DNA of 64,000 bases from an uncultured Desulfuromonas sp. (GCA_964508035.1 CAZDRL010000002.1:20828-84827), one strand, 5' to 3'. Shown: positions 84 to 42,451, counted from the first letter of the stretch. Notes: generated by a model from the sequence alone, not told the origin. Program-made: numbers and translations.

Positions 84-1772
84 ATGCTTAATGAGCTCAT
101 TATCCATAATCTCGCCGTGGTGGAACGTGCCGAAGTAACCTTTGCTTCAGGCTTTAATGTGCTTACCGGTGAGACCGGGGCAGGAAAGTCGATCATTGTT
201 GATGCCCTGGGGCTGCTTCTCGGGCAGCGCAGCCGTGGCGATCTGATCCGCACTGGACAGGAGCGTGCCGTGGTTGAGGCGGCATTTGATATCCGCACGC
301 ACGCGCACGTGCAGCACTGGCTGGAGGAGAACGATCTGGCGAATCCGGAAGATCGTACCGTATTGCTGGTAAAGCGGATTCTGCCGCGCCAGGGGCGTAA
401 CAAGGTGTACATCAATGGATCTATGGCAGCGCTGGCGCAGTTGCAGGAACTGATGCAACCGCTAGTGGCTATTTACGGCCAACACGAGCAGCAACAGCTC
501 CAACGGGTGGAGAACCATCTGCGCCTGCTCGATCGATTTGGTGCCTATGCTGCGGTGTTGGAGAAGTATCAGCACTGTTTCAGCACCTGGCAGCAGATGC
601 AGCGTACTTTGGCGCAACTTCAAGCTGAGGTTACCCAACGGCGTGATCGCCTCGATCTGCTTGTGTTCCAGAGTAATGAACTGCGTGAAGCGGAGTTGAA
701 AGAGGGGGAATGTGCCGACCTTGAGCAGGAACGTTTGCGCCTCCAACATGGAGAACGTCTCAGTTCGGTGACGCGCAAGGGCTACGATACTCTGTATGCC
801 ACCAAAGGGGCGATCTGCGAACAGCTCGGCACCCTGAAGGGGGAGTTGGAGGTCCTGCTGGAAGTGGACCCACGCTTAAAGTCCCCCTTTGAAGCGGTAA
901 GTGATGCCATGTACACCCTCGAAGATGCGGCGCTGCAGTTGCGTGCGCATGCGGATGGGGTGGTATTTGACCCCGAGCGCCAGCAAGAGGTGGAGCAGCG
1001 TCTCAATCAGTTGCACGGATTGCAGCGCAAGTATGCCGCAGACGAAAGTGGACTGATCCAGAAGCTCGCCGCGATGGAGGCGGAGCAGAAGCTCCTGGAC
1101 AGTAGCGACGATGAGATGGAACGACTGGAACAAGAACTGCACCGCACGCACCAGCAGTTGGAGCATGCTGGCGCCGCGCTTACCCAAGCCAGAGAAAGCG
1201 CGGCACAACAGCTGCAAGAGGCATTACACTATGAACTGGAGGGGCTAGCGATGCCGCGCGCCCGTTTCGAGGTGCGCTTCAGCCCACGGGTACACCCTAA
1301 CGCCACTGGGTTTGAAGAGGCAGAATTTTACTTCAGTGCTAACCCTGGGCAGGAATTGCGCCCGCTGGCAGCAACTGCATCGGGTGGGGAGCTTTCGCGC
1401 CTGATGTTGGCGTTGCGCAAAGCTGCTCCTGGTTCTGATGCGCTGGGTACAGCTGTTTTTGATGAGGTTGATGCCGGAATTGGCGGGGAGGCTGCGACTG
1501 CGGTGGGGCATCGCTTGCAGGATGTAGCGCAACGCAGCCAGGTGCTGTGTGTTACCCATCTGCCCCAGGTTGCGGCGTTTGCCACGACCCAGTTTCGCAT
1601 AGAAAAAGTGGTAGAGCAGGACCAGACCAGCACCAGGGTTGTCCAGCTGGAGACTGAGCCTCGCGTGCAGGAGCTGGCGCGGATGCTCGGAGGAGCCTAT
1701 AGCGGAGCACAGAGTGTGGAGCATGCCCGTGCCCTGTTACACCATAGCCTAAGGGAAATCCATGATTCGTAA
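84..1772 (+). CDS. recN: DNA repair protein RecN
   Basis: 562 aa. N-terminal Walker A GETGAGKS, long coiled-coil middle, C-terminal SMC-type signature GGELSRLMLAL and Walker B VFDEVDAG. Confidence 0.95.
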   Translation: MLNELIIHNLAVVERAEVTFASGFNVLTGETGAGKSIIVDALGLLLGQRSRGDLIRTGQERAVVEAAFDIRTHAHVQHWLEENDLANPEDRTVLLVKRILPRQGRNKVYINGSMAALAQLQELMQPLVAIYGQHEQQQLQRVENHLRLLDRFGAYAAVLEKYQHCFSTWQQMQRTLAQLQAEVTQRRDRLDLLVFQSNELREAELKEGECADLEQERLRLQHGERLSSVTRKGYDTLYATKGAICEQLGTLKGELEVLLEVDPRLKSPFEAVSDAMYTLEDAALQLRAHADGVVFDPERQQEVEQRLNQLHGLQRKYAADESGLIQKLAAMEAEQKLLDSSDDEMERLEQELHRTHQQLEHAGAALTQARESAAQQLQEALHYELEGLAMPRARFEVRFSPRVHPNATGFEEAEFYFSANPGQELRPLAATASGGELSRLMLALRKAAPGSDALGTAVFDEVDAGIGGEAATAVGHRLQDVAQRSQVLCVTHLPQVAAFATTQFRIEKVVEQDQTSTRVVQLETEPRVQELARMLGGAYSGAQSVEHARALLHHSLREIHDS

Positions 1773-6700: not shown

Positions 6701-6981
6701 ATACCATTCTCCTGAGTTTTTATGTGCGGTGTGTGCAGTTTGAACAATATCGATTCTGCACGGTATTCTGCCTTACAATGGCTGCAGTGTAAATCATTAC
6801 CCCTGGCTTCAGGGTGGAATTGTTGCCCTGTTCCCACCTTGCACAAGTGCGGGGGAGCAGGCGTTAGGAGGGGCAGGATAAGGATACTTTGTTCTTGCCC
6901 GAGTTTTCAATAATATGGTACACGAATAGTATTATCAATTACTTATAGATTTTATTCATCTATTTGCGTACGGGGTGCAAT

Positions 6982-7806
6982 GTGCTTGAAATTGCTGAAA
7001 TTATAAAGCGGGCGCTGCAGGAAGATATCGGCAGCGGGGATGTCACCACTATGGCAACGGTTCCGGCAGGAACGATCCGCCGCGCGGAACTGGTTGCAAA
7101 AGAGAACTTTACCCTTGCTGGTCTCGATGTGGCGCGCCAGGTTTTTACCACTCTGGACCCGGACGTGGCATTTGAGCCGCTGAAGTTTGACGGCAACAAG
7201 GTGCAGAGTGGGGATGTGCTTGCGTGGATTAAAGGTGATGCTCGTGTTTTGCTTCAAGGAGAGCGGGTGGCACTGAATCTGCTTCAGCGCATGAGTGGTG
7301 TGGCCACCACTGCGGCACGTTTTGTTGCCGCGGTAGCACACACCGATGCAATTATTGTGGATACACGCAAAACCACCCCGGGCTTGCGGGTGTTGGAAAA
7401 ATACGCAGTGCGGATGGGAGGGGCGCAGAATCACCGCACCTCGTTGTATGATGGCGTACTGATCAAAGAGAATCATATCGCCGCCGCCGGGGGGATCAGC
7501 GCGGCAGTTGCGGGCGCGCGCCGCAGTGCCCCGCATACCTTGAAGATTGAGGTGGAGACCGAAACCTTAGATGATGTGCGCGAAGCGCTTGCGGCTGGAG
7601 CAGATATTATCATGCTCGATAATATGACGCTGGAACAGATGTCTGAAGCGGTTGCGTTGATCGGTTCCAAGGCTGTAACCGAGGCCTCTGGCGGGGTTAA
7701 TCTGGATACCGTGGCGGATATTGCGGCAACTGGGGTAAATCTGATCTCGGTTGGGGCGCTGACTCATTCGAGCCGCGCCACGGATATTTCGATGTTGTTT
7801 CGTTAG
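6982..7806 (+). CDS. nadC: Nicotinate-nucleotide pyrophosphorylase (carboxylating)
   Basis: Typical QPRTase sequence: ALQEDIGSGDVTT..., RKTTPGLR, IMLDNM. I chose GTG at 6982 as the start; the ORF-track TTG at 6964 is also possible. Confidence 0.9.
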   Translation: MLEIAEIIKRALQEDIGSGDVTTMATVPAGTIRRAELVAKENFTLAGLDVARQVFTTLDPDVAFEPLKFDGNKVQSGDVLAWIKGDARVLLQGERVALNLLQRMSGVATTAARFVAAVAHTDAIIVDTRKTTPGLRVLEKYAVRMGGAQNHRTSLYDGVLIKENHIAAAGGISAAVAGARRSAPHTLKIEVETETLDDVREALAAGADIIMLDNMTLEQMSEAVALIGSKAVTEASGGVNLDTVADIAATGVNLISVGALTHSSRATDISMLFR

Positions 7807-7854
7807 ACCGCTGTCCTAAGTTTTCTGCACTGAGCAGTTGAGGAATATCAACCC

Positions 7855-8841
7855 ATGGAGCAAAACCGTTTGCGTGAAGCTATCGTACGCATGTTTCTGG
7901 AACACGAGGGGCAGATTATCTCCGGTGCGGAGTTGAGCTTGAACCTTGGGGTCAGTCGCACTGCGGTATGGAAGCATATCAATAAGTTGCGCGCAGACGG
8001 GTATGAGATTGAAGCTGTCCCTTCGCAGGGATACAAGCTGAGTGGCCGCCCGGACCTCTTGCTCCCCGCTGCGATTGAAATAGGGCTGGATACTTCCAGA
8101 ATCGGATGTCAGATCGAGTATCACGCGGAGATTGATTCCACCAATCTCAGAGCGCAGGTTCTTGCGGATCAAGGCGCACCGGAGGGGAGTGTGGTGGTGG
8201 CTGACAGCCAGAGTGCCGGGCGCGGCCGCATGGGGCGACCATGGAGCTCTCCGGCCGGGGTCAATATCTACACTTCAATTATTCTCCGCCCCACCTTGGG
8301 ATTGAGCGAAGCAACCCAACTTACGTTCCTTGCGGCAGTGGCAGTAGCGCGCGCGCTGGAAAAAAGCTGTGGCGTAAGTGTGAATGTGAAATGGCCCAAC
8401 GATATTCTCCTGAATGGAAAAAAGATTGCGGGTCTGCTCAACGAGTTGAGCGGCGAAACCGAGGGGATTCACCATGTAATTCTGGGGATAGGGGTGAATC
8501 TGAACATGGAACAAGATCAGTTCCCTCCCGATTTACGCTATCCAGCGACCTCAGTCCGCATCGAAACAGGGCAACGTGTGGATCGCGTTCAGTTTGTGCG
8601 CACCCTGTTCAGTGAAATTGAAACCCTGTACAATCTGTTGCTAGGGCACGGTTTTGTCCCGATACGCCTGGCGTGGGAGGCACTGTTCGACCTTGTTGGT
8701 ACCGTGGTGGAAGTTGATACCGGTTCCACCCCGGTGCGGGGTACGGTGGCGGGGATAGCTGAAGATGGAGCACTCCTGCTTACTACCGGGGCAGAAACCA
8801 CCCCGATCTACTCTGGAGATGTTCGACCGGTAGGGGTTTGA
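7855..8841 (+). CDS. birA: Bifunctional biotin-[acetyl-CoA-carboxylase] ligase / biotin operon repressor
   Basis: 328 aa. N-terminal wHTH (ISGAELSLNLGVSRTAVWKHINKLR) and the biotin-binding motif GRGRMGRPW. Confidence 0.9.
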   Translation: MEQNRLREAIVRMFLEHEGQIISGAELSLNLGVSRTAVWKHINKLRADGYEIEAVPSQGYKLSGRPDLLLPAAIEIGLDTSRIGCQIEYHAEIDSTNLRAQVLADQGAPEGSVVVADSQSAGRGRMGRPWSSPAGVNIYTSIILRPTLGLSEATQLTFLAAVAVARALEKSCGVSVNVKWPNDILLNGKKIAGLLNELSGETEGIHHVILGIGVNLNMEQDQFPPDLRYPATSVRIETGQRVDRVQFVRTLFSEIETLYNLLLGHGFVPIRLAWEALFDLVGTVVEVDTGSTPVRGTVAGIAEDGALLLTTGAETTPIYSGDVRPVGV

Positions 8842-30402: not shown

Positions 30403-32022
30403 TTAGCCTTCTACACGGTTGCTGCCGTGTTTCTTAGCACAATACAATTTTTTATCTGCACATTCAAACAATCCTTTGGGGTCAGCTGTTTCAATACTTG
30501 ACGCTGCTCCAAGGCTTAAGGTTACTACGGATGCCACTTCTGAGCGCGCATGCGGGATTGCCAGTTCCATTACCGCCTGCCGCAGGCGCTCTCCGACATA
30601 GAGAGCCCCGGCCAGATCAGTGCCAGGGAGGACTACCACAAATTCCTCTCCACCATAGCGTGCCACCCAGTCGATGCTGCGCCCCAGATTACGCTTCAGG
30701 CACGCGCTAACCCGGCGGAGGCACATATCTCCCTGCTGATGCCCGTAGTGATCATTGTAGAGCTTAAACTGATCGATATCGCACACCAGGATGGAAACTT
30801 CGCGTCCAGAACGGATTGAAGTGGTCAGTTCGCTGTGCAACATCTGATCAAAATAGCGTCGGTTATAGAGCCCCGTAAGACCGTCGCGGGTCGCTTCGCG
30901 CTCTGCTGTTACTAAGCGCAGTTCGCGATTGAAAGTCCAGATTAATATGATCTCAATTAAAATAAAACCGATCACAGCATACGCGATGTTGAACCACACC
31001 GAGGTGCGGAATGTGGTTACTAAGGGGGTAACATCCTCCCACGTCAAGACAAACCCGGCTGCAGGCAGGTGTGGATTCTGCTCACCTTCGTAGTCACGCA
31101 GAGGGAAGTAATAGACCGAGATATGCTTGCCATCGAGTTGTATCAGGTGTGCGTGCGCGGTGGTGAATTCGGGAGTAAGACTGATCTGCTGCAGGACCCG
31201 GGGGACATTCTGGCGTGCTTCTGGGCTCGAAGCAGATTCGAGGTAGTACTGCATAGCGGGATTGGCACTAAAAAACTTGTGTATAAATTCGGGCCACATG
31301 CGTGTTTCAATATGTTCAGGAGTGAGGAGCACTGAGATGTCCGTTCCATAGAAACTCGCAAACATGGGGAGAATCAGGTCAAAAGAGGTCCCCACCTCCA
31401 GGGTGCCCACATGTATATCTTCAGCAGTGGTGGGGTCTTGAGTCCAGACGGGAGTTACCGCGCGCAGACCACCATAGATGCGCCCAGTTTCGAATCCGAT
31501 ACGTGGGGTTTCTTCTGCATACGTGTCAACAATGGTGTGACGCAGATCGTCCATCCGATCTCCGTACTTGTCCGGCGTGTGAACGCGCAGAAAGCTTAGA
31601 CTGCCAGGACCGAGATGGTAATGCAACTGACGCACGTTGAACTGGGCGGTAAGTTTGTCCCATGCGGGCTTAACCTGCTTGAGCACTTGCTGGCGCGCAA
31701 GCTCTGCTTTTGCTCCGCCGTTGCTGGTTGAGTTAGCATCTACAGCTTTTTTGCCCTGTAAAAACAGCTGGTTGAGTTCATGGTCGTTACTGATGAACTG
31801 CGCCATCTGCATCATGTTGGCGTAGGTCATCTCCAACATGATCCTGAACTCATTCTCGTGATCGTGAGCATGCTTAGAGAGGGTATTGAGGAGGGCACTT
31901 TTGGAGGAGTGGTAGTTCAGGGCTACAAATGCAACATTCAACATCAAGATGATAAGACTGATGAGAAGCAGCGACTTCCGCGCGTGCTGATGGATGTAGC
32001 GAATGAGGTTCATAATGCCCAT
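30403..32022 (-). CDS. Membrane diguanylate cyclase with a periplasmic Cache-like sensor domain
   Basis: 539 aa. Two TM segments flank a ~300-aa extracytoplasmic domain. C-terminal GGDEF domain (RYGGEEF) has an RxxD I-site (RSID) 5 residues upstream. Confidence 0.9.
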   Translation of the reverse strand: MGIMNLIRYIHQHARKSLLLISLIILMLNVAFVALNYHSSKSALLNTLSKHAHDHENEFRIMLEMTYANMMQMAQFISNDHELNQLFLQGKKAVDANSTSNGGAKAELARQQVLKQVKPAWDKLTAQFNVRQLHYHLGPGSLSFLRVHTPDKYGDRMDDLRHTIVDTYAEETPRIGFETGRIYGGLRAVTPVWTQDPTTAEDIHVGTLEVGTSFDLILPMFASFYGTDISVLLTPEHIETRMWPEFIHKFFSANPAMQYYLESASSPEARQNVPRVLQQISLTPEFTTAHAHLIQLDGKHISVYYFPLRDYEGEQNPHLPAAGFVLTWEDVTPLVTTFRTSVWFNIAYAVIGFILIEIILIWTFNRELRLVTAEREATRDGLTGLYNRRYFDQMLHSELTTSIRSGREVSILVCDIDQFKLYNDHYGHQQGDMCLRRVSACLKRNLGRSIDWVARYGGEEFVVVLPGTDLAGALYVGERLRQAVMELAIPHARSEVASVVTLSLGAASSIETADPKGLFECADKKLYCAKKHGSNRVEG

Positions 32023-32077
32023 ATCAAAATACCTGTGTGCAAGAGGGTAAGCAGGTGGACGGGGCCCTCACCTGCTG

Positions 32078-32704
32078 TTAAGAGCCAGACATATCCCCGC
32101 CAGACATATCTCCGTTGCAGCGGACAATGTAGCCGCTGCCAATGGCACTAAAAGGGAGATCCAGCCTTAGCTCCGGCACCTCGCGCCCTATCCACGCGGT
32201 AAAGGTGTTACTGTTGGGTCCGGGGAAAGCGCGGTATTCATCAGGCCAGGGGTAGGTGCGCGCCGCAGCATCCAGGGCTTTAACCAGATGCGCCGCGGCA
32301 GGACCGCGATGTTCTTGCAACAGACGCGGTTTTTCTCCATACCAGTAGCGGTCGGGGATATCCTCTTCGATCCGTACTACCGGCAATCCCTGGTGCTGGC
32401 GCCAGCCTATCACCTCATATACGGTGTAGGTATTTGCCCCCTGTGGTTTTGCTGCAATCCAGGTATGTACTGCAAACCAGCCGCGCCAACTCCAAGCGTC
32501 GGCGGCGTATACCTGTATTATTGCGTCCTGTGCTTCATGCGGAGAAGGGGCAATCCCAGCAGATTCACGGCTGGCGGTACGCCAATCTTGCCCGCCATTA
32601 CAGGCGTAGATAAGGGTACAGATACCCGCAAGAATCAGGGCGAGAACCACGATTCTGTACGTTAGTCTAGGCTTTATGCTGCGTATTTTGAAACGTGAAA
32701 GCAT
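32078..32704 (-). CDS. Membrane-anchored DUF3750-like protein
   Basis: 208 aa. N-terminal TM segment. The pattern ..YAADAWSWRGWFAVHTWIA..YEVIGW.. matches my memory of the DUF3750 family. The tail ends in a GDMSGGDMSG repeat. Confidence 0.45.
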   Translation of the reverse strand: MLSRFKIRSIKPRLTYRIVVLALILAGICTLIYACNGGQDWRTASRESAGIAPSPHEAQDAIIQVYAADAWSWRGWFAVHTWIAAKPQGANTYTVYEVIGWRQHQGLPVVRIEEDIPDRYWYGEKPRLLQEHRGPAAAHLVKALDAAARTYPWPDEYRAFPGPNSNTFTAWIGREVPELRLDLPFSAIGSGYIVRCNGDMSGGDMSGS

Positions 32705-32730
32705 ACATCTTTTTCTCCTACGTGCGTTGT

Positions 32731-33882
32731 TTAATCCGCGAGCCTGAAGACCCCATTCTGCACCTCAACAATTACCATAGAGTTGGTATCCAGACCATTA
32801 TGATCCGCAGGGGTGATATTGTAAATCCCGGACACCCCGATGTGGTTGGTGGTGTTTTCAATAGCTAAGCGCAGTTCGTCAGCTGTGGTTCCACTTCGTT
32901 CGATCGCGGCGGCCACAATCATTATGGCGTCCCAAGCATAGCCGGAATGGGTGTTGATAGGGAATTGTTCTGCATACCCTTTTTCTTGGTAGAGGCGGAT
33001 AAATTCCTGAATCACCTGTTTCTGCGGATCGCTGTCGGGAAGCTGCTCTGCAACCAGCAGCTTGGTGGAGGGCATCCGGTTCCCCTCGCTCGCAATTCCG
33101 GCTAGTTCGATATATTTGGGGTCTGGGAGGCCATGACACTGGAAGAGGGGGATCTCGATTCCAAGTTGCGTCCTGTTTTTGGCCACAATTGCCCCTGCAG
33201 GGCCGATGGTCCAAGTTACAATGGCGGCGGGATTGGCATTTTTAATTTTAGTCAGCTGCGTGGTCATGTCTGTGTCACGCGGGGCAAAAGACTCCTGTGC
33301 TACGATCTCAATGCCGTACTCCGGTGCCAATTTCTTGATCCATTTTGCTCCATCTTTGCCAAAACCGTCTGCGGCTGAGAGGAGGGCTATAGTGTTGATT
33401 TCATGCTTCTGCAGGTACTGAAACAAGCGTGCCACTGCGATGCTGGAGCGCTGCGGCGACTTGAAGACCCAGTCGAAGGGACCGAATTTTCCCCCCAAGA
33501 TAACCGGATCGCCGCCGACAGTCATAAAGATCGGGGTTTTCCCTGTGTTGGCGAGCATTTTAACCGCCATACCGGTATCGGTCATGGTGGGGCCAATAAT
33601 GGCGGTAACCTTATCTTTATAGATAAACTTTTTCGCTAGATTTACCGCTTTTGCAGGGTTGGCCTCGGTGTCGCCTACAATCAGCTCGATATTACGCCCG
33701 TTAATCCCGCCACGGGAGTTTATCTGCTCCACTGCCATCTGTGCCACCAGACGTGTGGGGGTGCCAATAAACGCTGCATTGCCGGATAGATCAAAAAAAG
33801 CTCCGATTTTGATACTGTCGTTGGCGTGCAGGTTAAATGTCACCCCTATGAGTATGATTGTAAGTAGCAGTATGCGCTTCAT
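32731..33882 (-). CDS. livK: ABC transporter periplasmic substrate-binding protein (LivK/type I PBP family)
   Basis: 383 aa. Signal peptide, IKIGAFFDLSG...A, and a typical Leu/Ile/Val-binding-protein fold pattern. The substrate could be aromatic rather than branched-chain, given the operon context. Confidence 0.85.
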   Translation of the reverse strand: MKRILLLTIILIGVTFNLHANDSIKIGAFFDLSGNAAFIGTPTRLVAQMAVEQINSRGGINGRNIELIVGDTEANPAKAVNLAKKFIYKDKVTAIIGPTMTDTGMAVKMLANTGKTPIFMTVGGDPVILGGKFGPFDWVFKSPQRSSIAVARLFQYLQKHEINTIALLSAADGFGKDGAKWIKKLAPEYGIEIVAQESFAPRDTDMTTQLTKIKNANPAAIVTWTIGPAGAIVAKNRTQLGIEIPLFQCHGLPDPKYIELAGIASEGNRMPSTKLLVAEQLPDSDPQKQVIQEFIRLYQEKGYAEQFPINTHSGYAWDAIMIVAAAIERSGTTADELRLAIENTTNHIGVSGIYNITPADHNGLDTNSMVIVEVQNGVFRLAD

Positions 33883-33923
33883 TGCGTTCTCCTCCTATTG
33901 ATTAAATCGGATGCAGCGTTTTC

Positions 33924-33959
33924 GCCCTTGGTGCTGCTCAGGGTAGTAGCACCAAGGGC
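33924..33959. other. 12-bp perfect hairpin in the paaK-livK intercistronic region
   Basis: gcccttggtgct-(12 nt)-agcaccaagggc. No U-tract follows on the transcribed (minus) strand. Confidence 0.6.
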
Positions 33960-34018
33960 AGGAGTATCACAACCTTTAGTTGAACTGTTACCGTCAGATC
34001 TTTGATTCACATGCCTGG

Positions 34019-36133
34019 TCAGACTATTGGGCCTTGAATCCGATCATCAAACACCCGCTTACTCTTTTTTTCTGAGCGCGGCAGGGTGCCGTAGTCGACC
34101 AGTTCAAGCTCAGCACTTACCAGCAGTTGCCTTTTAATCTGGTGTTCTGTTTCGTGGATCAACTCAGGATTGCGGCTCCTCTCTACCCCTTCGCCACGCT
34201 CTACCACCATCCGCATGTGGTCACGGCCGGAATCTTTGTCGCGCCTGAGGTGGATCTGGTATTCACTCCCCAGCCCTGGCACTGCGGAGAGGATGGTGTC
34301 GACGCTGCTCGGATAAATATTGACCCCGCGAAACTTGATGGTGTCGTCCGAACGTCCCTTTATGCGCGAATGGCGCGGCAACGGGCTCCCACAAGTACAT
34401 GGGCCGGGAATTTTGCGTGTTATATCGCGGGTGCGATAGCGCAGCATGGGGGTTCCCTCCTTGCACAGGCTGGTTACCACCATTTCGCCCCATTCTCCAT
34501 CTGGCACTGGTTGCAAAGTCTCAGGGTCGATAATTTCCAGGATAAAATAGTCGGCCCAGTAGTGGATGCAGTCGTGATCGGAGCACTCAATGCCGGTGCC
34601 GGGTCCATAGAGTTCGGTAAGCCCAGTGATGTCGAAAAGTTCCGCACCACCGAAGAGCTCGGATATCTTGCGGCGCATGGAGACAGAAGAACGTTCCGAA
34701 CCGTAGATGATTTTTTTGACATTGATTTTGTCTGCAATGCCGCGGCGGTTAATCTCTTCCGCCATCAGCAATGCCATGGAGGCGGTGGAGCAGAACACCG
34801 TGGACTGGAAATCAAGGAGGAACTGAATCTGTAGGTCGATGTTCCCCGGTCCTACAGGCACTGCCATGGCGCCGATTTTTTCACATGCGGCCTGGAACCC
34901 GGCCCCTGCCGTCCATACTCCGTAACCCACCGCAATCTGAATGCGATCTAGCGGGGTGATCCCAGCCATCTGGTAGCAGCGCGCAAAGAAGTACTGCCAA
35001 TCGTGCAGATCTTTTTGCGTGTAGCACAGCACCTTGCGCAACCCCGTAGTGCCAGAGCTGGCGTGGATGCGCACAACCTGTTCAAATGGGACCGCGCGCA
35101 ACGGGAACGGATAGCCAGCGCGCAGATCGTCGGCATCGGTAAACGGAAGGTGGCGTATATCATCTAGAGTTTGAATGGTAGCGGGATTTACCCCTGCTGT
35201 ATCAAGTTTTTCCCGATAAGCGCTGGAACCTTCGTAGGCATGGCGCACGCTCCACTGCAACCCTTTTAGTTGGTGCTGGCGCAGTTCATCTTCAGAGCTG
35301 AAAGAGGGCATAAAATTCTGATTACACATATCTGGTTTCTCCAGGCGGATATTGGTTAGGCCTGCCGCACCGAGACGGCTGGCTTTCGGACTATCGTTAC
35401 TTGCGGCACCCAGAAAGGCGGCACGCAGATTGGGATCGTTGAGAAGTTCAGCGCTGCGCCCCTGCTGTACCAGCTTTCCATTGGCGAGCAGATAGGCGCG
35501 ATCCGATGCGGACAGGGCGCGGGCGGCGTTTTGTTCCACCACCAGGATGGTGGTGCCGGCACGCGCGAGTTGGTGGATAAGCGCAAATATTTCGTCGGTG
35601 ATTTTCGGTGCCAGCCCCAGGCTGGGTTCATCCAGCAGGAGCAGGCGTGGTTTCGCCATCAGGGCACGCCCCATGGCGAGCATCTGTTGTTCTCCGCCAG
35701 ACAAGGTGCCGGCGAGCTGGGTGCGGCGTTCGCGCAGGCGCGTAAAACGCTGATAAATTTCCTCCAGGCGCTGCTGGTGTACGGCACGCTTGAGTTTTAG
35801 CGCCATAGCCCCGAGGGTGAGGTTTTCTTCCACACTCAGCTGTGCAAAAACCTCGCGCCCTTCTGGTGAGAGGGCGAGGCCGTGCCGCACCATAGCGGCG
35901 GGGGAGGCTGTGGTTACATCCTCCCCCGCTAGCAGGATGTGACCCCCACTGGGTTTCAGTAGCCCCATAATACATTTCAGCAGGGTACTCTTGCCCGCTC
36001 CATTTGCACCGATAAGGGCGATGGTCTCCCCAGTTTTGATGTGGAGATCCACTCCATATAGCGCCTGTGCTGCGCCATAGTGGGCACTGAGGTGTTCAAT
36101 TTCCAGCAGTGTTTGTGCGGTTTTAGTTTTCAT
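34019..36133 (-). CDS. Fusion protein: LivF-type ABC ATPase (N-terminal ~235 aa) plus PaaK-type phenylacetate/arylacetate-CoA ligase (C-terminal ~430 aa)
   Basis: One uninterrupted 704-codon frame from ATG 36133, which overlaps the livG stop in an ATGA. N-terminus: GANGAGKST, LSGGEQQML, LLLLDEPSLGLAP. C-terminus: IHASSGTTGLRKV, YGPGTGIEC, RYRTRDIT..CTCGSP..RIKGRSDDTIKFRGVNIYP. Confidence 0.8.
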   Translation of the reverse strand: MKTKTAQTLLEIEHLSAHYGAAQALYGVDLHIKTGETIALIGANGAGKSTLLKCIMGLLKPSGGHILLAGEDVTTASPAAMVRHGLALSPEGREVFAQLSVEENLTLGAMALKLKRAVHQQRLEEIYQRFTRLRERRTQLAGTLSGGEQQMLAMGRALMAKPRLLLLDEPSLGLAPKITDEIFALIHQLARAGTTILVVEQNAARALSASDRAYLLANGKLVQQGRSAELLNDPNLRAAFLGAASNDSPKASRLGAAGLTNIRLEKPDMCNQNFMPSFSSEDELRQHQLKGLQWSVRHAYEGSSAYREKLDTAGVNPATIQTLDDIRHLPFTDADDLRAGYPFPLRAVPFEQVVRIHASSGTTGLRKVLCYTQKDLHDWQYFFARCYQMAGITPLDRIQIAVGYGVWTAGAGFQAACEKIGAMAVPVGPGNIDLQIQFLLDFQSTVFCSTASMALLMAEEINRRGIADKINVKKIIYGSERSSVSMRRKISELFGGAELFDITGLTELYGPGTGIECSDHDCIHYWADYFILEIIDPETLQPVPDGEWGEMVVTSLCKEGTPMLRYRTRDITRKIPGPCTCGSPLPRHSRIKGRSDDTIKFRGVNIYPSSVDTILSAVPGLGSEYQIHLRRDKDSGRDHMRMVVERGEGVERSRNPELIHETEHQIKRQLLVSAELELVDYGTLPRSEKKSKRVFDDRIQGPIV

Positions 36134-36894
36134 GCGGTGGGCTCCATACTTCCGAGGTAGGCATTGAGAACGCGTGGATTGCGCTGTACCTCTGCCGGAG
36201 TGCCACACGCAATAACCTCGCCGCTGTCGAGCACCACAACCTGATCCGCAAGTTCCATTACCAGTTCCATATCGTGCTCCACCAAAAGCATGGTCTGACC
36301 CAAGCGGTGCAGACGGCGTAATTGTGCTGCCACTGCTGCTGTTTCGGTGGCGTTGAGTCCTGCCACCGGCTCATCGAGAAGGAGCAGGCGCGGATTCCCT
36401 ACGCTGGCGCGTGCCAGTTCGACCCGTTTTTTGTCTCCATACGCGAGTATCTGCGCCGGATGGGAAGCGAGATGGGTCAGATCAAAGTTATCCAGTGCTT
36501 CGAGCGCGCGCAGTTTAAGGTGTCGTTCGCGATGGCGCAGATAGGGGAGGCGCAACAGCGCCATACACATACTTGAACCGGCCTCGTTGTTGAGCCCGCT
36601 CAACACATTGTCTAACACACTCAGGCGCCCGAACAGCTTCAGGTTCTGAAAAGTGCGTCCCACTCCGTGGCGTGCAATTACATGTGTTGGTGCGGAGCGG
36701 ATGGAGACTTGCTCTAGCTGGATCTTCCCGCTGTCGGCACGGTGCACCCCCGTAATGCAGTTGATGAGGGTGCTTTTCCCTGCGCCGTTGGGGCCGATAA
36801 GGGCGGTAATCCCCCCGCGTGGAACATGGAAGGAGACCTCATGCAGGGCGGGTAGTCCGCCAAAATATTTAGACACGTTGTCAAGATGAAGCAT
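36130..36894 (-). CDS. livG: Branched-chain-type ABC transporter ATP-binding protein LivG
   Basis: 254 aa. GPNGAGKST, ..YGDKKRVELARA.., LLLLDEPVAGL. Overlaps livM by 14 nt. Confidence 0.9.
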   Translation of the reverse strand: MLHLDNVSKYFGGLPALHEVSFHVPRGGITALIGPNGAGKSTLINCITGVHRADSGKIQLEQVSIRSAPTHVIARHGVGRTFQNLKLFGRLSVLDNVLSGLNNEAGSSMCMALLRLPYLRHRERHLKLRALEALDNFDLTHLASHPAQILAYGDKKRVELARASVGNPRLLLLDEPVAGLNATETAAVAAQLRRLHRLGQTMLLVEHDMELVMELADQVVVLDSGEVIACGTPAEVQRNPRVLNAYLGSMEPTA

Positions 36895-37885
36895 GGCGAC
36901 TCCGCCGTAATGCGGTGCGGGTTTTAAGTAGATCGACTATACCGCTGACAAAACCCTGGGGTAGAAACATCAACACCAGCACTAAAATTCCGCCATGGAT
37001 AAAATCTTTGTAGGTTTCAAATATCTCAATCCATTCTGGCAACAGGGTTATGAGGGCAGCGCCGAACAGTGAGCCCCAGATAGAGCCCATCCCCCCGATA
37101 ACCACCATGATTACCAGATCGGTGGAGACAAAGATGTCAAAGGAGCCGGGGCTTATATAGCCATAGCAGTGGGCGTAGAGGCTCCCGGCTACGGAAGCTA
37201 GTACTGCCGAGAGGACGAACACTTTGATTTTGCTCGTGCGCGTATCGACCCCAAGTGCCGCCGCCGCCGTTTCATCGCCGGCGAGGGCGGCAAGGCCGCG
37301 CCCAACTCCGCTGCGTACCAGATTCAGGCATAATAAAAGTGCCACCAAGGCCACGCTCCACACCAAGTAGTGAAAGCGGATTTCGTTGTCGAGGGCGAAG
37401 GTGCCGATTTGTAGCGCCGGAATACCGTAAAACCCACTTACCCCACCAGTAACCTCGTCCCACTGCAGCAAAATCCGATGGATGACGATATTAAACCCCA
37501 AGGTTGCCATGGCGAGATAATGCCCCGATAGCCGCAGGGTGGGGATTGCCAGCCCCAGCGCAAGGAAAGCCACAAGAAGTGCCACTATGAGCATCGCGCT
37601 CCAAGGGGGGATTTCAAACGTTACTGTGCTGATGGCGGAACCATACGCGCCGAGACCAAAAAAAGCCGCGTGGCCGAGGGAGATCTGTCCGGCATAGCCA
37701 ATAAACAGATTTAACCCCAACACTACGATGCCATATATCGCCACCAGATTAGAGACCCCAAGGGTGTAGGGATTATCCTGCACCAGTGGATACAGCAACA
37801 ACCCCAGCCCCAACACGGTTACCCATAGCCCGGTGCGGTGCAAACGTATGAAGTACGCAATTTTATCCGAAGTACGCATGTGCAT
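36881..37885 (-). CDS. livM: Branched-chain-type ABC transporter permease LivM
   Basis: 334 aa polytopic membrane protein with the LivM-like GQISLGHAAFFGLGAY motif. Confidence 0.9.
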   Translation of the reverse strand: MHMRTSDKIAYFIRLHRTGLWVTVLGLGLLLYPLVQDNPYTLGVSNLVAIYGIVVLGLNLFIGYAGQISLGHAAFFGLGAYGSAISTVTFEIPPWSAMLIVALLVAFLALGLAIPTLRLSGHYLAMATLGFNIVIHRILLQWDEVTGGVSGFYGIPALQIGTFALDNEIRFHYLVWSVALVALLLCLNLVRSGVGRGLAALAGDETAAAALGVDTRTSKIKVFVLSAVLASVAGSLYAHCYGYISPGSFDIFVSTDLVIMVVIGGMGSIWGSLFGAALITLLPEWIEIFETYKDFIHGGILVLVLMFLPQGFVSGIVDLLKTRTALRRSRHASS

Positions 37886-37924
37886 TGGTTGAAATCCGCT
37901 CAGGCCGCTCAGAAAAAGATATCC

Positions 37925-38425
37925 TTAGCCCTGCAGGCCAAGGTGAAACGCGGCGATATTTTGTTCCACAAATTTGGCAGGAGCCAACATGCGGATCGCT
38001 TCTTCGCAATCCTCGCGGGCGCAGAAGATCTTTCCTGCGCGCACTGCTGCACCGAGCAAAACCAGGTTTGTGAGCACTGCATTACCTAGATTGCGTGCCA
38101 TGCTGACAGCATCCAGGCGGATACCATCTCCATCTGTGTGGGAGTTGACTACAGCCGTACCATTGGGACGCAGGAGCCCCTGGTGAACCTCTAAGTTGGC
38201 ATCCCATAAGATCAGGGCCAGATCAGCCTGCCCGGTGCGGATCAGCGGACTGGCGAAATCCCCTACTTTAATGCATGACAACACCGTACCGCCGCGTTGC
38301 GCCATGCCGTGGGTTTCAGACGTCAGTACCGGAATATTGCGGTTCACCGCAACCTGGGCAATAACTCGGGTCAGGAACAACACCCCTTGACCGCCTATTC
38401 CACTGACAATGATCTGTTGTTTCAT
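37925..38425 (-). CDS. iorB: Indolepyruvate:ferredoxin oxidoreductase subunit beta
   Basis: 166 aa from the Met in MKQQIIVSGIGGQGVLF... This is the gamma-type domain of 2-oxoacid:ferredoxin oxidoreductases. ORF-track start is 38437. Confidence 0.85.
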   Translation of the reverse strand: MKQQIIVSGIGGQGVLFLTRVIAQVAVNRNIPVLTSETHGMAQRGGTVLSCIKVGDFASPLIRTGQADLALILWDANLEVHQGLLRPNGTAVVNSHTDGDGIRLDAVSMARNLGNAVLTNLVLLGAAVRAGKIFCAREDCEEAIRMLAPAKFVEQNIAAFHLGLQG

Positions 38426-38548
38426 GTTGCGCTCCATCTATATTTATTATGTGGATGTGGGTTTTGCGTAACTTTTCATCATCCGCTAACGGTATGGGGC
38501 TTGTGGTACCACTAGCCCCTGCTTATCAGGTTGCATTTTGCAGTTGTT

Positions 38549-40402
38549 TCAGGATGGCTTATTTCCCTTTAATCGCCCTTTAATCGCGTTTACTGGGCAC
38601 ACCGGAATGCAGGCGCCACACCCGACGCAGCGGTCATGGTCGACTACTGCGATTCCGTTGTCGATGTCCATGCTTAGAGCGGGGCATTCAAATGCATCCA
38701 CGCACCGGCGACACCCGATGCAGGTAGCGGCGATGCTGATGGTGTAGCGCGGCTGTTGCTGCAAGACGCCAGGCTGCATCATGCAGCCATGGCGTGCGAT
38801 GAGCACCGCTACTGAGCCCGCAGGTGCGCGGGTATGTGCGTCTGCGGCACGCAGGAGTTCTTCAAAACGCTGATTATCGTAGGGATCGCAACATTCAAGA
38901 AACTCAACTCCACTGGCTTTTACCAACGGCTCAATGGGGATTGCTTTGGTCTCGGCACCGGTGGCGCTGATTCCCAAATGGGGGACCGGTTGACCGCCAG
39001 TCATAGCAGTGATGGAGTTGTCGAGGATCACCACAATGATGCGCGCTTTCTGGATCACCGCATTGATTAAGGCGGTGATGCCTGAGTGGAAAAAAGTGGA
39101 ATCGCCAATGGTGACAACCACCGTGGGGAAGTTGTCTGCGTGATCCTGGGCGTAGGCGTGGTAAAAACCCGCACCCTGGCTGATACACGCACCCATGCAG
39201 TGGACGGTATCCACCGCCTTGAGGTTGATTCCCAGGGTGTAACAGCCGATATCGGACGGGAAAATCCCCTTTGGGAACACTTTTTTGATGCTGTAGAATG
39301 CGCTTCGATGGCCACATCCCGGGCATAGGGAGGGGCGTTGCCCCCGATTTGCTTCCGGCGCAGCTGCCGGAGCGGGAAGATCGAGGAAACGGCTCAGGGC
39401 TGGGTAGAGCAGATCCGGAGTCAGTTCCCCCTCTTTGACAATATCGCCGCTGTGTTTGCCAAACGCACCGGGGTGGCACAGTTGCATCTCAATGACCGGA
39501 TATGTCTCTTCTGCCACCATAACGCGGGTGTAATCGCGCTTTAGGTGGGCAATCCACGCGGGATTGAGCGGGTAAGGCACTACCACTTGGAACAGGTCGA
39601 TGCTCCCGCTCAGATCGAGCTCTTCAAGTAGATCCACCAGGTGACTGTACACAATCCCAGATGCCACAATAGCGCTACGCGGATAGCGCCCGTCGCCATC
39701 GGTTTTGCGCGCCTGAATTGCAGCTTCGGTTGCAAAGGCTTCGAGTTTGGTGTTGAGCTTGCGGTGCAGCGCGGGGAGAAACGCCGGGGTTGCGGCCCAA
39801 CGCGCTGGATCGCGTTTGAAATCGGCGCGCCGTGCCAGAGTGGTTATCTCTTGACGCCTAATGCTTTGGCGCGAATGGCAGATGCGCGTTGCAGGACGTA
39901 GTACCGTAAGCATCTCATACTTCTCTCCCAGTTCCAGCGCCAGGGGGATAAGTTCTTTGGCTTCTGCCGGGCTCGCAGGGTCAAATACCGGTACACGCCC
40001 CTGGAGGCAGAACAGCCGGGTATCCTGCTCGTTCTGCGAACTATGTGGCCCCGGATCGTCGGCGACAATGGCGAGCATCCCCCCCTTTATCCCCAGATAG
40101 GCGGTGCGCATAAAGGGGTCTGCGGCAACATTCAGCCCCACCTGTTTCATAATCGCGGCACTGCGCTTGCCGGTATAGCTCGCCGCCAGGGCAACTTCAA
40201 ACGCAATCTTCTCGTTGACGGACCATTCCACATGCAGGGGTTCGCGTGCTTCGCTATAGCGCTCAGCTAGCGCCTGAAGGATTTCGGTAGAGGGGGTTCC
40301 GGGGTACGCGGCTACCACTTGACACCCCGCCTCAATCAGACCGCATGCCATGGCTTCGTTGCCCATTAACAGTTCAATATTGTTGTATTCGTCCATGCTC
40401 AT
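38549..40402 (-). CDS. iorA: Indolepyruvate:ferredoxin oxidoreductase subunit alpha
   Basis: 617 aa. N-terminal pyrimidine-binding domain, TPP-binding domain (GDSTFFHSG), and two C-terminal ferredoxin motifs ([26 protein letters not shown]). Confidence 0.9.
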
Positions 40403-40442
40403 CCCATTGTTGTTTTACGTAGTAGAAATTCATTTTATATAA

Positions 40443-40484
40443 AATATGGCACGCCGAATATGGCACGCCGAATATGGCACGCTG
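40443..40484. repeat. 14-bp tandem direct repeat, 2.9 copies (AATATGGCACGCCG)
   Basis: aatatggcacgccg aatatggcacgccg aatatggcacgc. It lies in the 97-bp gap between the livH stop (40500) and the iorA start (40402). An AT-rich tract lies next to it, between the repeat and the iorA start. Confidence 0.95.
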
Positions 40485-40499
40485 TGACGCGCCCGGCGC

Positions 40500-41360
40500 T
40501 CATTTCCCCAATAGCCCCTTTGGGCGCACAAACAGTATCAACAACAGAACCACAAAAGCCACGACATCTTTGTACGCGCTCGAAAGGTATCCTGCTGAGA
40601 GAGATTCAAGTAGTCCCAAAGCGACACCGCCTATAATCGCACCTGGAAAGGAGCCGAACCCGCCAAGGATGGCGGCGGCAAACCCTTTGAGCCCCAGAAG
40701 AACACCAACATCGTAGCTTAAAGTGGTGATAGGGGTGACCAACACTCCGGCCAGCCCACCCAGAGCGCCGGCGATGGCAAAGCTCATTAGCCGAATGCGT
40801 TCTGGCGCAATCCCTACTACTGCAGCGGCGGTAGGATTGGAGGCCGCTGCGCGCATTGCGAGCCCCATAGGGGTGTGATGGAAGAACCAGTGCAGGAGCG
40901 TAATTACCCCCAGCGTAAGTCCTAAGATCCAGACAGCCTGGGGTAAAATAGTGGCACCAAACAGATTGACAGGGGTTTCACCTCTTAAAGGGGGAACCGC
41001 CATCCGGTTGGTACCCCATATAAATTTCATCCCACCGCGCAGGATGATGGATATTCCAATGGTGAGGAAGATCAGCACCAACTCGTTGTGTGAACGCGCA
41101 GGGCGCAGACCAAAACGTTCCACCAGCATGGCAATCAGTGCCACTCCGGTCACAGCTAGAACTACTCCGGGCAACGTCGGGATCCCGAAGGTGACCAGAG
41201 CAGTAAACATGAGCATACCGCCGAGGGAGACAAAGTCGACCTGGGTGAAGTTGACAATCCCCATGGCGTTATGCACTACGCTGAAGCCGAGAGCTATAAG
41301 GGCGTAGATCGCGCCATTGGTAAGGCCTGCGAGGGCGAATTGTAGAAGATCCTGCGCCAT
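40500..41360 (-). CDS. livH: Branched-chain-type ABC transporter permease LivH
   Basis: 286 aa from the Met in MAQDLLQFALAGLTNGAIYALIALGF..., a typical LivH N-terminus. The ORF-track start at 41492 adds 44 unlikely residues. Confidence 0.85.
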   Translation of the reverse strand: MAQDLLQFALAGLTNGAIYALIALGFSVVHNAMGIVNFTQVDFVSLGGMLMFTALVTFGIPTLPGVVLAVTGVALIAMLVERFGLRPARSHNELVLIFLTIGISIILRGGMKFIWGTNRMAVPPLRGETPVNLFGATILPQAVWILGLTLGVITLLHWFFHHTPMGLAMRAAASNPTAAAVVGIAPERIRLMSFAIAGALGGLAGVLVTPITTLSYDVGVLLGLKGFAAAILGGFGSFPGAIIGGVALGLLESLSAGYLSSAYKDVVAFVVLLLILFVRPKGLLGK

Positions 41361-41701
41361 ACGGTTCGCTGTCTGAGGGTAGTTGTCTGAAGTTGAAGTA
41401 GCGTATACACCAAGAGAGTAAACAGGGAAAATAAAACACTTGTTTACATCTGTGCAGAAAAAGGTTGCGCCAGAGTATGTCAGACGTGCCAAAAGGTCAA
41501 GAAACGGGGTTGACTAAAATGCCTATTGGCTTCAGAAACAGTGGGATCAACAGGTGGGTGTCTGGGGGGATATCCAGGCACGCGCTACTCAGCATGTACC
41601 CAGTTTTTTCTTAAATTGTGGTTAAAGTTGGTAATTGCTATATTATGAGCGTTGACTTTGAGGGTTGGTGCCAGATGTTAATTTTACCTGTGTAATGGAG
41701 A

Positions 41702-42451
41702 GTGTGCGTGGCAGAGATTGTGATCGATTCACTGTATAAAAAATACAAGCCGGGTCTATTTAAAAAGCCGGTACAGGCGGTGAGTGGGCTGAGCTTGAAG
41801 GTTCCGACGGGAACTGTATACGGTCTAGTTGGCCCTAACGGGGCGGGGAAAAGCACCGCTATCCGCATGTTGCTAAATCTCATCCGCCCCGATAGCGGTG
41901 AGGTTCGCATTGATGCGCAGCCGATTACAGAGGGAGAATTTCTACAGCAGATTGGCTATCTGCCGGAAAATCCTTATCTGTATGAGCATTTGAGTCTGCG
42001 CGAGCTGCTCCGTTTTGCAGGGCACGCATGTGGAATGCCTGCAGAAAAGATCGAAACCCGGATAGACACCTTAACCCGCGAGACTGGGATTGCCCATGCG
42101 CTGAAGCGGCGTCTTCGCACCTTTTCCAAGGGAATGCGGCAGCGCGCTGGCTTGTGTTTTGCTCTGTTGCACGATCCACAACTGGTGATTCTGGATGAAC
42201 CCATGAGTGGGCTGGATCCACTCGGGCGGAAGATGGTGTGCGAATTGATTCTGGAGCTGAAGCAGCAGGGGAAAACGGTATTTTTTTGCTCGCATATCCT
42301 AAGTGATACCGAGCGCCTGTGCGATAGGATTGCAATTCTGCACCAAGGGTCTCTAGTGCGAGAATTTGAAGCTGATGACCTGCGCGCTTTTCGGAACAAG
42401 GAGCGCAGCCTTGAAGCTGAATTTGTTGCCGCAGTGGGAGGTGAAAGTTGA
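41702..42451 (+). CDS. ABC transporter ATP-binding protein (ABC-2 exporter type)
   Basis: 249 aa. GPNGAGKST, FSKGMRQR, VILDEPMSGLD. The start is GTG 41702 or GTG 41708; GGAGAG at 41696-41701 favours the latter. Confidence 0.9.
   Translation: MCVAEIVIDSLYKKYKPGLFKKPVQAVSGLSLKVPTGTVYGLVGPNGAGKSTAIRMLLNLIRPDSGEVRIDAQPITEGEFLQQIGYLPENPYLYEHLSLRELLRFAGHACGMPAEKIETRIDTLTRETGIAHALKRRLRTFSKGMRQRAGLCFALLHDPQLVILDEPMSGLDPLGRKMVCELILELKQQGKTVFFCSHILSDTERLCDRIAILHQGSLVREFEADDLRAFRNKERSLEAEFVAAVGGES

Follow-up and report, generated by a model that had tools for sequence, protein, structure and literature searches.

Importers of the LIV-I/HAAT type (LivFGHM with a LivJ/K-type binding protein; TC 3.A.1.4) are ATP-binding cassette (ABC) systems that depend on a binding protein, and the general view of such importers, to our knowledge, is that the cargo reaches the cytoplasm chemically unaltered. 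The extra domains that we know of on importer ATPases are regulators, not enzymes that act on the cargo. In MalK, MetN and ModC, regulatory domains lie C-terminal to the nucleotide-binding domain (NBD), bind effectors and inhibit transport. We analysed a 64,000-nucleotide stretch of DNA from an uncultured Desulfuromonas sp. (GCA_964508035.1 CAZDRL010000002.1:20828-84827; "the window" means this whole stretch), in which a single gene encodes a LivF-type ATPase continuous with a PaaK-type, adenylate-forming CoA ligase. The extra domain of this livF::paaK-like fusion likewise follows the NBD, at the C-terminus of LivF, but it is a complete enzyme of 435 residues that would act on the presumed cargo.

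The transporter encoded around the fusion has the same five parts as LIV-I/HAAT importers, with LivF-type motifs. Apart from the enzyme carried by LivF, it differs from them in the insertion of iorAB, the genes for indolepyruvate:ferredoxin oxidoreductase (IOR), between the permease genes, and in a LivF part that scores below the equivalog cut-off. Its binding protein is most similar to those of aromatic-acid importers with cluster B-III binders (R. palustris CouP-type, Variovorax IadK2). The ligase shares its fold and motifs, at 38-40% identity, with PaaK1 and PaaK2 of B. cenocepacia and with BT_0428, and it shares a genomic partnership with IorAB with the IOR-adjacent ligase of Bacteroides. 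Unlike PaaK and BT_0428, it is fused to an ABC ATPase, falls below the TIGR02155 cut-off, lies outside the paaABCDE aerobic pathway and belongs to its own clade of IOR-linked ligases in the Desulfobacterota. Two further systems resemble the working that we propose. In vectorial acylation (FadL/FadD, eukaryotic FATP, and the peroxisomal transporter Comatose/ABCD with acyl-CoA synthetases), carboxylic-acid transport is linked to formation of a CoA thioester on the trans side, and Comatose is an ABC transporter that works with acyl-CoA chemistry (PMC6642094). Those systems handle fatty acids and use separate proteins or another transporter class, and none is a binding-protein-dependent bacterial importer with its NBD covalently fused to a ligase. 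The aryl-acid route via IOR in Methanococcus maripaludis, Methanobacterium and rumen bacteria consists of the steps that we propose here, beside a de novo pathway, whereas in our case the uptake system, ligase and IOR stand in one operon, the ligase is joined to the importer, and the route is predicted from genes. The parts (a HAAT importer, a PaaK-family ligase and IOR) are ordinary, and this is not a categorically new system.

We lean modestly towards the view that one polypeptide, in which a linker of 26 residues tethers LivF to an AMP-forming aryl-acid CoA ligase of the PaaK family, serves the salvage of arylacetates. The gene and its parts are as follows.

34019..36133, minus strand: livF::paaK-like fusion open reading frame (ORF), 704 aa plus stop in one open frame, with Pfam and NCBIfam matches to both halves
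35408..36133, minus strand: LivF-type nucleotide-binding domain, residues 1-242, from NCBIfam LivF, PDB 1ji0, AlphaFold2 (AF2) with Foldseek, and conserved motifs
34019..35329, minus strand: PaaK-type adenylate-forming CoA ligase domain, residues 269-704, from TIGR02155, PDB, Foldseek and conserved motifs
35330..35407, minus strand: linker, residues 243-268 (AASNDSPKASRLGAAGLTNIRLEKPD), from where similarity to LivF stops (..AFLG) up to the ancestral start of the ligase
35333..35380, minus strand: invariant linker core S252-P267 (SRLGAAGLTNIRLEKP), near-identical in 83 unique linker DNAs
35339..35342, minus strand: internal Shine-Dalgarno (SD)-like GGAG, codons L264-E265, marked by codon-level conservation and fixed spacing
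35327..35329, minus strand: internal ATG, Met269, the ancestral ligase start and candidate second start, present in 83/83 and aligned with orthologue starts

The fusion ORF runs on the minus strand from an ATG at 36133 to a TGA that ends at 34019, 704 codons with 0 internal stops. Translation, Pfam and NCBIfam thus bear out the initial annotation, made from the window alone, which had read one 704-codon LivF-PaaK frame with both halves complete and had left the strand unstated. The start codon overlaps the livG stop (ATGA; context gcATGAaa) and is preceded by GGAG with an 8-nt spacer. Pfam places ABC_tran at residues 27-171 (E 2e-31), AMP-binding at 348-554 and AMP-binding_C_2 at 603-698. NCBIfam LivF (NF008626) aligned end to end over residues 7-242 with 261 bits, against an equivalog cut-off of 441, and PaaK TIGR02155 spans residues 280-698 with 382 bits, against an equivalog cut-off of 646. 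A match to the NCBIfam DVU_1553 family was set aside as a reflection of general PaaK-like similarity.

The closest solved chain to the ATPase part is T. maritima 1ji0 (E 2.7e-67; Foldseek template modelling score, TM, 0.92). This part contains GANGAGKS (Walker A), LSGGEQQ (signature) and LLLLDEPS (Walker B), together with the LivF-type PEGR, which replaces the Q-loop Gln, and VEQN (EQN switch). By its sequence it is LivF-like, and not an equivalog of E. coli LivF. The ligase part contains SSGTTG, YGPGTG, RYRTRD and GRSDDTIKFRGVN, so that every ATPase and ligase motif named at the outset is found in the translation. Among solved chains the ligase matches 4r1l (E 1.7e-95) and B. cenocepacia PaaK1/PaaK2 (E 1e-85 to 1e-90), and its fold in the AF2 model gives Foldseek TM 0.76-0.77 to BT_0428 and PaaK2 (0.77 for BT_0428, at 40% identity). 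No solved chain in the PDB comparison covers both halves together. Across 43 fusion proteins, motif residues are mostly invariant or at least 90% conserved, the exceptions being S49, L163, T503 and T513; the SSGTTG P-loop is invariant and the A10-type catalytic Lys690 is at least 90% conserved. As far as sequence conservation can tell, both halves are complete and under purifying selection. AF2 run with a 114-sequence alignment gave a mean predicted local distance difference test score (pLDDT) of 86, mostly above 90 in the ATPase part, and a predicted TM (pTM) of 0.60; a 43-sequence alignment gave a poor ligase model (pLDDT 64).

The fusion is, as comparison across genomes indicates, almost certainly real. 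We scanned at one genome per species and fetched the best junction-spanning loci, 80 in number, from independent assemblies that include complete genomes; all 80 span the LivF-ligase junction uninterrupted. The carriers are Desulfuromonas, Malonomonas rubra, Desulfuromusa kysingii, Geothermobacter, Trichloromonas, Geopsychrobacteraceae, Desulfopila, Desulforhopalus, Desulfofustis glycolicus, Desulfoprunum benzoelyticum, three Desulfosarcina species, Desulfomicrobium and a Syntrophales metagenome-assembled genome. Since the same fusion occurs at 80 loci across several Desulfobacterota orders, an assembly artefact is excluded. A sequencing or assembly error, or a pseudogene in which a missed stop or frameshift hides two genes, has no supporting evidence that we could find, and the comparison refutes it: the frame is uninterrupted in every locus and the junction peptide is invariant. 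We assign that explanation practically no probability. At one of these loci (L079) an apparent second paaK after the fusion proved to be one gene split by an assembly frameshift.

The search of related genomes that the initial annotation had called for was productive. Of 40 genomes from the same genus, family or order, 18 carry the fusion intact and at full length. In a sample of 401 genomes from the whole phylum, 14 carry it, the window's own counted; about 150 more of the 401 have only a stand-alone ligase orthologue, at 54-72% identity. Among 5.8 billion proteins, the 120 that match best are without exception fusions, 694-714 aa long and 77-97% identical, and they share the same four Pfam domains. 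Databases call them "ATP-binding cassette domain-containing protein", and JGI names them after both halves. The architecture is neither rare nor unannotated, occurring in hundreds of public genomes and metagenomes. The initial annotation knew of no characterised example, and full-text literature searches turned up no study of a LivF-ligase fusion or of Liv-IOR-ligase operons.

Some genomes still carry the two genes side by side. In G099 the order is livH-livM-livG-livF-TAA-ligase-SBP-iorA (SBP, solute-binding protein), the ligase is in frame with livF, and the text between them reads GAC TAA GGA GCC CGC ATG. In G168 livF and the ligase gene are adjacent and likewise unfused. The stand-alone orthologues and these unfused neighbours, one stop apart, indicate that two adjacent genes were joined, and on this evidence loss of the single stop codon between livF and the ligase gene is what gave the fusion. 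It would since have been inherited or transferred within the compact operon livH-iorA-iorB-livM-livG-livF::ligase-SBP. The stand-alone orthologues in G027, G120, G198, G302, G132, G286 and G141 begin 3-6 residues before (N/T)F(M/L)P, which matches Met269. Fission has also occurred: the secondary stand-alone ligase of G039 keeps only CTG GAG AAG CCG CAC ATG of the linker, and in that gene CTGGAGAAGCCGCACATG is kept as the only plausible ribosome-binding site and start.

One full-length representative (P0122) stands for the whole family in a library clustered at 50% identity, which argues for a single origin. We consider it very likely that the fusions form a single-origin family, joined by two further LivF-ligase families with unrelated linkers. 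The second family (P0126; L115:9001-11277) has proteins of ~755 aa with a long, basic, variable linker, is found in metagenomes only and comprises more than 50 clusters at 90% identity; its operon reads SBP-livH-livM-livG-fusion-iorA-iorB-aminotransferase. The third (P0357-P0361; L116:9001-11160, L117:1589-3658) has proteins of ~690 aa with a canonical PaaK N-terminus. The L116 fusion is followed by an ACT-domain gene, and the L117 copy is an orphan. The representative library also holds a 635-aa protein (P0141) in which IorB (POR gamma-type domain) is fused to a PaaK-like ligase. Taken together, the LivF-ligase families and the IorB::ligase protein suggest that this pathway's enzymes have more than once become linked, both with one another and with the importer.

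A linker of ~35 residues, rich in Ser, Ala and Gly, had been described at the outset. The linker exists, but it has about 26 residues, is Ser/Ala/Gly-rich only in part and holds an invariant core, and so is not a mere flexible tether. In the core, S-R-L-G-A-A-G followed by L-T-N-I-R-L-E-K is identical or nearly so in the 83 unique linker DNAs. The linker peptide SRLGAAGLTNIR (residues 252-267) is better conserved than most of either enzyme domain, yet residues 251-270 have pLDDT below 50 and no secondary structure in the AF2 model. A role in docking or in processing is conceivable. The two ends of the core differ in how they are conserved. SRLGAAG is invariant as a peptide while all synonymous codons are in use, which indicates that the peptide is selected and that the full-length protein must be made.

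The codons L264-E265-K266, on the other hand, are almost fixed as (C/T)TG GAG AAA. E265 is GAG in 97% (baseline in these genes, 46%), K266 is AAA in 87-93% (baseline 55%) and the L264 codon ends in TG in 96-100% (baseline 60%). The synonymous entropy of E265, 0.18 bits, is the lowest of 16 conserved Glu columns, the next being 0.86; K266 is lowest among 6 conserved Lys columns, and L259 and L264 are lowest among 42 conserved Leu columns. The five-codon window 262-266 has the lowest synonymous entropy in the whole 704-codon gene. These codons place GGAG 9 nt before the ATG of Met269 in all 83 ATG-type sequences, and the ATG itself is kept in 83/83. For comparison, the fusion itself starts with GGAG-8 nt-ATG, and the binding-protein gene of the operon with GGAGGAG-6 nt-ATG. 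Met269 aligns with the start of all stand-alone ligase orthologues examined, and fusions of the second and third families also retain an SD and ATG at the ligase N-terminus. The one sister clade without the ATG has TTG there in all five of its sequenced members. TTG makes up only 10% of Leu codons and is able to act as a start.

RNA structure was ruled out as the cause of the nucleotide conservation, since RNAalifold found no conserved structure at codons 257-266 (-2.6 kcal/mol, 0 covarying pairs) and Rfam had no match within window positions 32000-42000. Near Met269 we saw no sigma-70-type hexamers at workable spacing for an internal promoter, as judged by eye only. The GGAG-N9-ATG is under the strongest synonymous constraint in the gene, which suggests that a free ligase is made as well, and on balance we think that Met269 probably is a translation start used besides that of the full-length fusion. 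In-frame internal starts that give two isoforms are known from IF2, ClpB and CheA. The candidate here is like them in having an SD and start in frame inside a longer ORF, and here selection is seen at the nucleotide level; it differs in that the putative short form is the whole ancestral enzyme freed from its transporter tether. Internal initiation at MCNQNF... without a full-length product had been named by the initial annotation as grounds for rejecting the fusion. Initiation there probably happens, with the full-length product made as well. Before Met269 the peptide is invariant at the protein level, which argues that read-through is selected too.

The fusion lies in an operon whose other members are listed here.

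40500..41360, minus strand: livH permease (BPD_transp_2); orthologues align from residue 3 of the product that starts at ATG-41360
38549..40402, minus strand: iorA, IOR alpha subunit (TIGR03336 606 bits, cut-off 651; Pfam POR_N, TPP_enzyme_C, Fer4)
37925..38437, minus strand: iorB, indolepyruvate:ferredoxin oxidoreductase beta (Pfam POR; NCBIfam IOR beta 189 bits)
36881..37885, minus strand: livM permease (BPD_transp_2, E 1e-44)
36130..36894, minus strand: livG, the partner ABC ATPase (ABC_tran and BCA_ABC_TP_C)
32731..33882, minus strand: periplasmic solute-binding protein of aromatic-acid (cluster B-III) type (Peripla_BP_6; solved relatives)

The longest livH ORF reaches a TTG at 41492, and the ATG at 41360 is the likelier start. 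The context expected of LivF (LivG, a pair of BPD_transp_2 permeases and a binding protein of the Peripla_BP_6 type) is present in the window and in most of the 80 loci, and the seven-gene order livH-iorA-iorB-livM-livG-fusion-SBP also recurs in most of them. The ligase gene is found with iorA and iorB in the window; in most of the 80 loci iorAB belong to the operon or adjoin it, the Desulfosarcina type having them upstream in divergent orientation, and stand-alone ligase orthologues adjoin iorAB too (e.g. G027). No paa catabolic genes are among the operon members in the window. Of the 55 loci that reach far enough upstream of livH, 14 have a divergent TrpR-family gene there, in Desulfuromonadia and Desulfobulbia; one example is at L025:3678-3932 on the minus strand. 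The TrpR-family gene scores 64.5 bits with TIGR01321 against 28.9 with the YerC/YecD model.

Downstream of the binding-protein gene, on the same strand, are genes for a DUF3750 protein (32078-32704) and a dCache-GGDEF diguanylate cyclase (30403-32022), which are not conserved with the operon elsewhere. The window's genome has a second, more canonical PaaK-like gene (G000:C13:44874-46145, L018; TIGR02155 634 bits) that adjoins a second iorA, with no transporter. In one relative (L021, from G120; 7380-8132) the operon is iorAB-livH-livM-livG-ligase-SBP, with seemingly one LivG-like ATPase before an unfused ligase.

The best solved relative of the binding protein is 7ylt (E 7e-41). We identify this chain as Variovorax IadK2 because the paper that holds the code solved IadK2 and the five residues it names (F168, W172, R199, F308, Y311) fit the chain at one constant offset; IadK2 binds indole-3-acetate (IAA) at nanomolar affinity. 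The next solved relatives are the R. palustris aromatic-acid binders 3sg0, 4dqd, 3uk0, 3ukj and 3tx6, and Leu/Ile/Val binders score far below these. Comparison with these chains makes an aromatic-acid cargo likely. The ligase is closest to B. thetaiotaomicron BT_0428, and the IOR-adjacent AMP-forming ligase of Bacteroides is an arylacetate-CoA ligase for which an anabolic role has been proposed (PMC13285125, 2026). Its authors argue that AMP-forming ligases favour thioester synthesis, so that Bacteroides IOR may run anabolically as in methanogens. In M. maripaludis, aryl acids enter the synthesis of aromatic amino acids by way of IOR, according to Porat et al. as cited in PMC4162585. We had also considered Kuehl et al. 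2014 (D. alaskensis G20) as a source on phenylacetate-to-phenylalanine genes and dropped it, the text in question being absent from that paper. The binding protein, the ligase, the TrpR-family gene and the aminotransferase of the second family fit arylacetate uptake, CoA activation, reductive carboxylation and transamination, and we favour the anabolic direction as the probable one.

In the working that we propose, the binding protein would capture an arylacetate (of indole-3-acetate, phenylacetate or 4-hydroxyphenylacetate type) in the periplasm, and LivHM with LivG-LivF would import it. The ligase, held at the cytoplasmic face, would at once make the CoA thioester and so trap a membrane-permeant weak acid. 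IorAB would then reductively carboxylate the arylacetyl-CoA to the arylpyruvate, and an aminotransferase would convert this to tryptophan, phenylalanine or tyrosine, as a salvage route alongside de novo synthesis. That uptake might be coupled to activation had already been suggested for the fusion; the operon context (a Liv-type importer, an aromatic-acid-type binder and IorAB) fits, and LivF-ligase fusions fall into three families; channelling or gating of transport would be the inferred part. The second product, free ligase started at Met269 through GGAG-N9-ATG, could pair with the single tethered copy on each transporter. Law and Boulanger reportedly found in 2011 that PaaK enzymes are dimers. 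A LivG/LivF pair gives one tethered copy, so we speculate that free ligase could complete the dimer. We can go further, tentatively, to a two-product gene that makes an enzyme-armed importer, in which free ligase dimerises with the tethered one and SRLGAAGLTNIR docks to LivG, the permeases or IorAB to form a membrane-bound metabolon for import, CoA trapping and reductive carboxylation of arylacetates. This is a possibility that we regard as rather unlikely; if true, the metabolon would be a bacterial ABC-importer form of group translocation.

A number of observations weigh against the salvage proposal or its parts. Both the LivF and the ligase parts fall below their NCBIfam equivalog cut-offs, which means that neither is the textbook enzyme, and the AF2 model shows no docking of the ligase on the ATPase (at pTM 0.60 its interdomain geometry is unreliable). 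As to the internal start, intragenic SD-like motifs can be conserved for reasons other than initiation, and the TTG clade is weak evidence because it represents a single evolutionary event. The binding protein retains just two of the five residues with which IadK2 contacts IAA: Tyr311 and an Arg in a displaced position. We therefore limit our claim to an aromatic carboxylate, and the transfer of IAA specificity from IadK2 was dropped because these pocket residues are mostly not conserved. Some operons, such as that of Desulfomicrobium baculatum, are without iorAB, and the fusions at L019, L079, L092 and L107 are orphans with no permease genes within 4-10 kb. IOR is reversible and the aminotransferase is compatible with both directions. 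The genome of the window encodes prephenate dehydratase and two copies of trpB, so the aryl-acid route is not essential there, and it has no TrpR (no PF01371 match). In this genome the route would be one of salvage, under regulation other than TrpR. All function is inferred.

Some details belong to these exceptions. In D. baculatum (L024, CP001629.1) a 355-bp livH-livM gap at 6896-7252 stands where other genomes have iorAB. The orphan copies at L019 (5761-7884), L079, L092 and L107 have no livG, livH, livM or ior genes within 4-10 kb, and the neighbours at L019 are DUF6599, DUF362, an Fe-S protein and pirin. A 90-aa ORF upstream of livH in the window (41638-41910) was considered as TrpR and rejected, since it has no Pfam match and is antisense to a neighbouring ABC gene.

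The tether itself might mean little. A stop codon lost between two adjacent, translationally coupled genes could have left a harmless, "Rosetta-stone" type of fusion that is neutral or fixes a 1:1 ratio, with no channelling, no gain from trapping and no regulation, and with the internal SD-ATG as a relic. The in-frame livF and ligase neighbours of G099, one stop apart, fit such a history, as do the several independent fusions, which are expected if adjacency eases them, the AF2 model without interdomain contact, the variable linkers of the second and third families and the fission in G039. However, the fusion has been retained over several orders, at 66-87% identity with synonymous sites saturated, its linker core is invariant as a peptide, unlike a neutral tether, and the SD-ATG is under the gene's strongest synonymous constraint and hence is no decaying relic. 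We consider a neutral fusion unlikely, if still to be reckoned with. The same invariant core could point to regulation, in which occupancy of the ligase by acyl-adenylate, CoA or acyl-CoA gates ATP hydrolysis and matches import to downstream capacity. The ligase does lie C-terminal to the NBD, where the known regulatory domains are, and the large C-terminal domain rotation of ANL enzymes could be transmitted. Yet conservation extends to every catalytic motif of the ligase, among them the P-loop and the A10-type Lys690, which marks it as an enzyme; the domain is on only one of the two NBDs, AF2 predicts no contact, and free ligase from the internal start would not regulate. A mainly regulatory module is therefore quite improbable in our view.

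The pathway could also run the other way. In a catabolic version, an aromatic amino acid or arylpyruvate would be imported, IOR would oxidatively decarboxylate the arylpyruvate to arylacetyl-CoA, and the ligase would run in reverse for ATP, or the CoA ester would have another fate. Reverse action of an AMP-forming ligase (acyl-CoA + AMP + PPi -> ATP) has reportedly been proposed for Syntrophus aciditrophicus. We count for this version 4dqd, one close solved relative of the binding protein, which was reportedly crystallised with phenylpyruvate. IOR is classically oxidative, as in peptide fermentation (Mai and Adams, as cited second-hand), and the literature has IOR induced on phenylpyruvate in Desulfococcus multivorans; the aminotransferase of the second family fits both directions. 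But AMP-forming ligases normally favour thioester synthesis, and catabolic IOR clusters usually carry ADP-forming ligases or Pta with a kinase (PMC13285125). An operon for biosynthesis or uptake that its end product shuts off is where a TrpR-type repressor would be expected, and a tether between an importer and a product-releasing enzyme makes little sense. We regard the catabolic direction as improbable.

What the comparison has uncovered is an uncharacterised, widespread and easily testable enzyme-armed ABC importer with a conserved internal start and an unexplained invariant linker motif. With the fusion one can ask, in a natural system, whether chemical trapping of a substrate can be coupled to its uptake by an ABC importer, as in vectorial acylation. 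The internal start and the invariant linker motif offer simple mutational handles, and cultured carriers exist (Desulfomicrobium baculatum, Malonomonas rubra, Desulfuromusa kysingii, Desulfosarcina variabilis, Desulfuromonas versatilis). The fusion also suggests that sulfate- and metal-reducing bacteria of sediments have an unstudied route of salvage. By such a route, aromatic amino acids would be made from fermentation products or auxin-like arylacetates, and it would bear on carbon and amino-acid cross-feeding in anoxic sediments.

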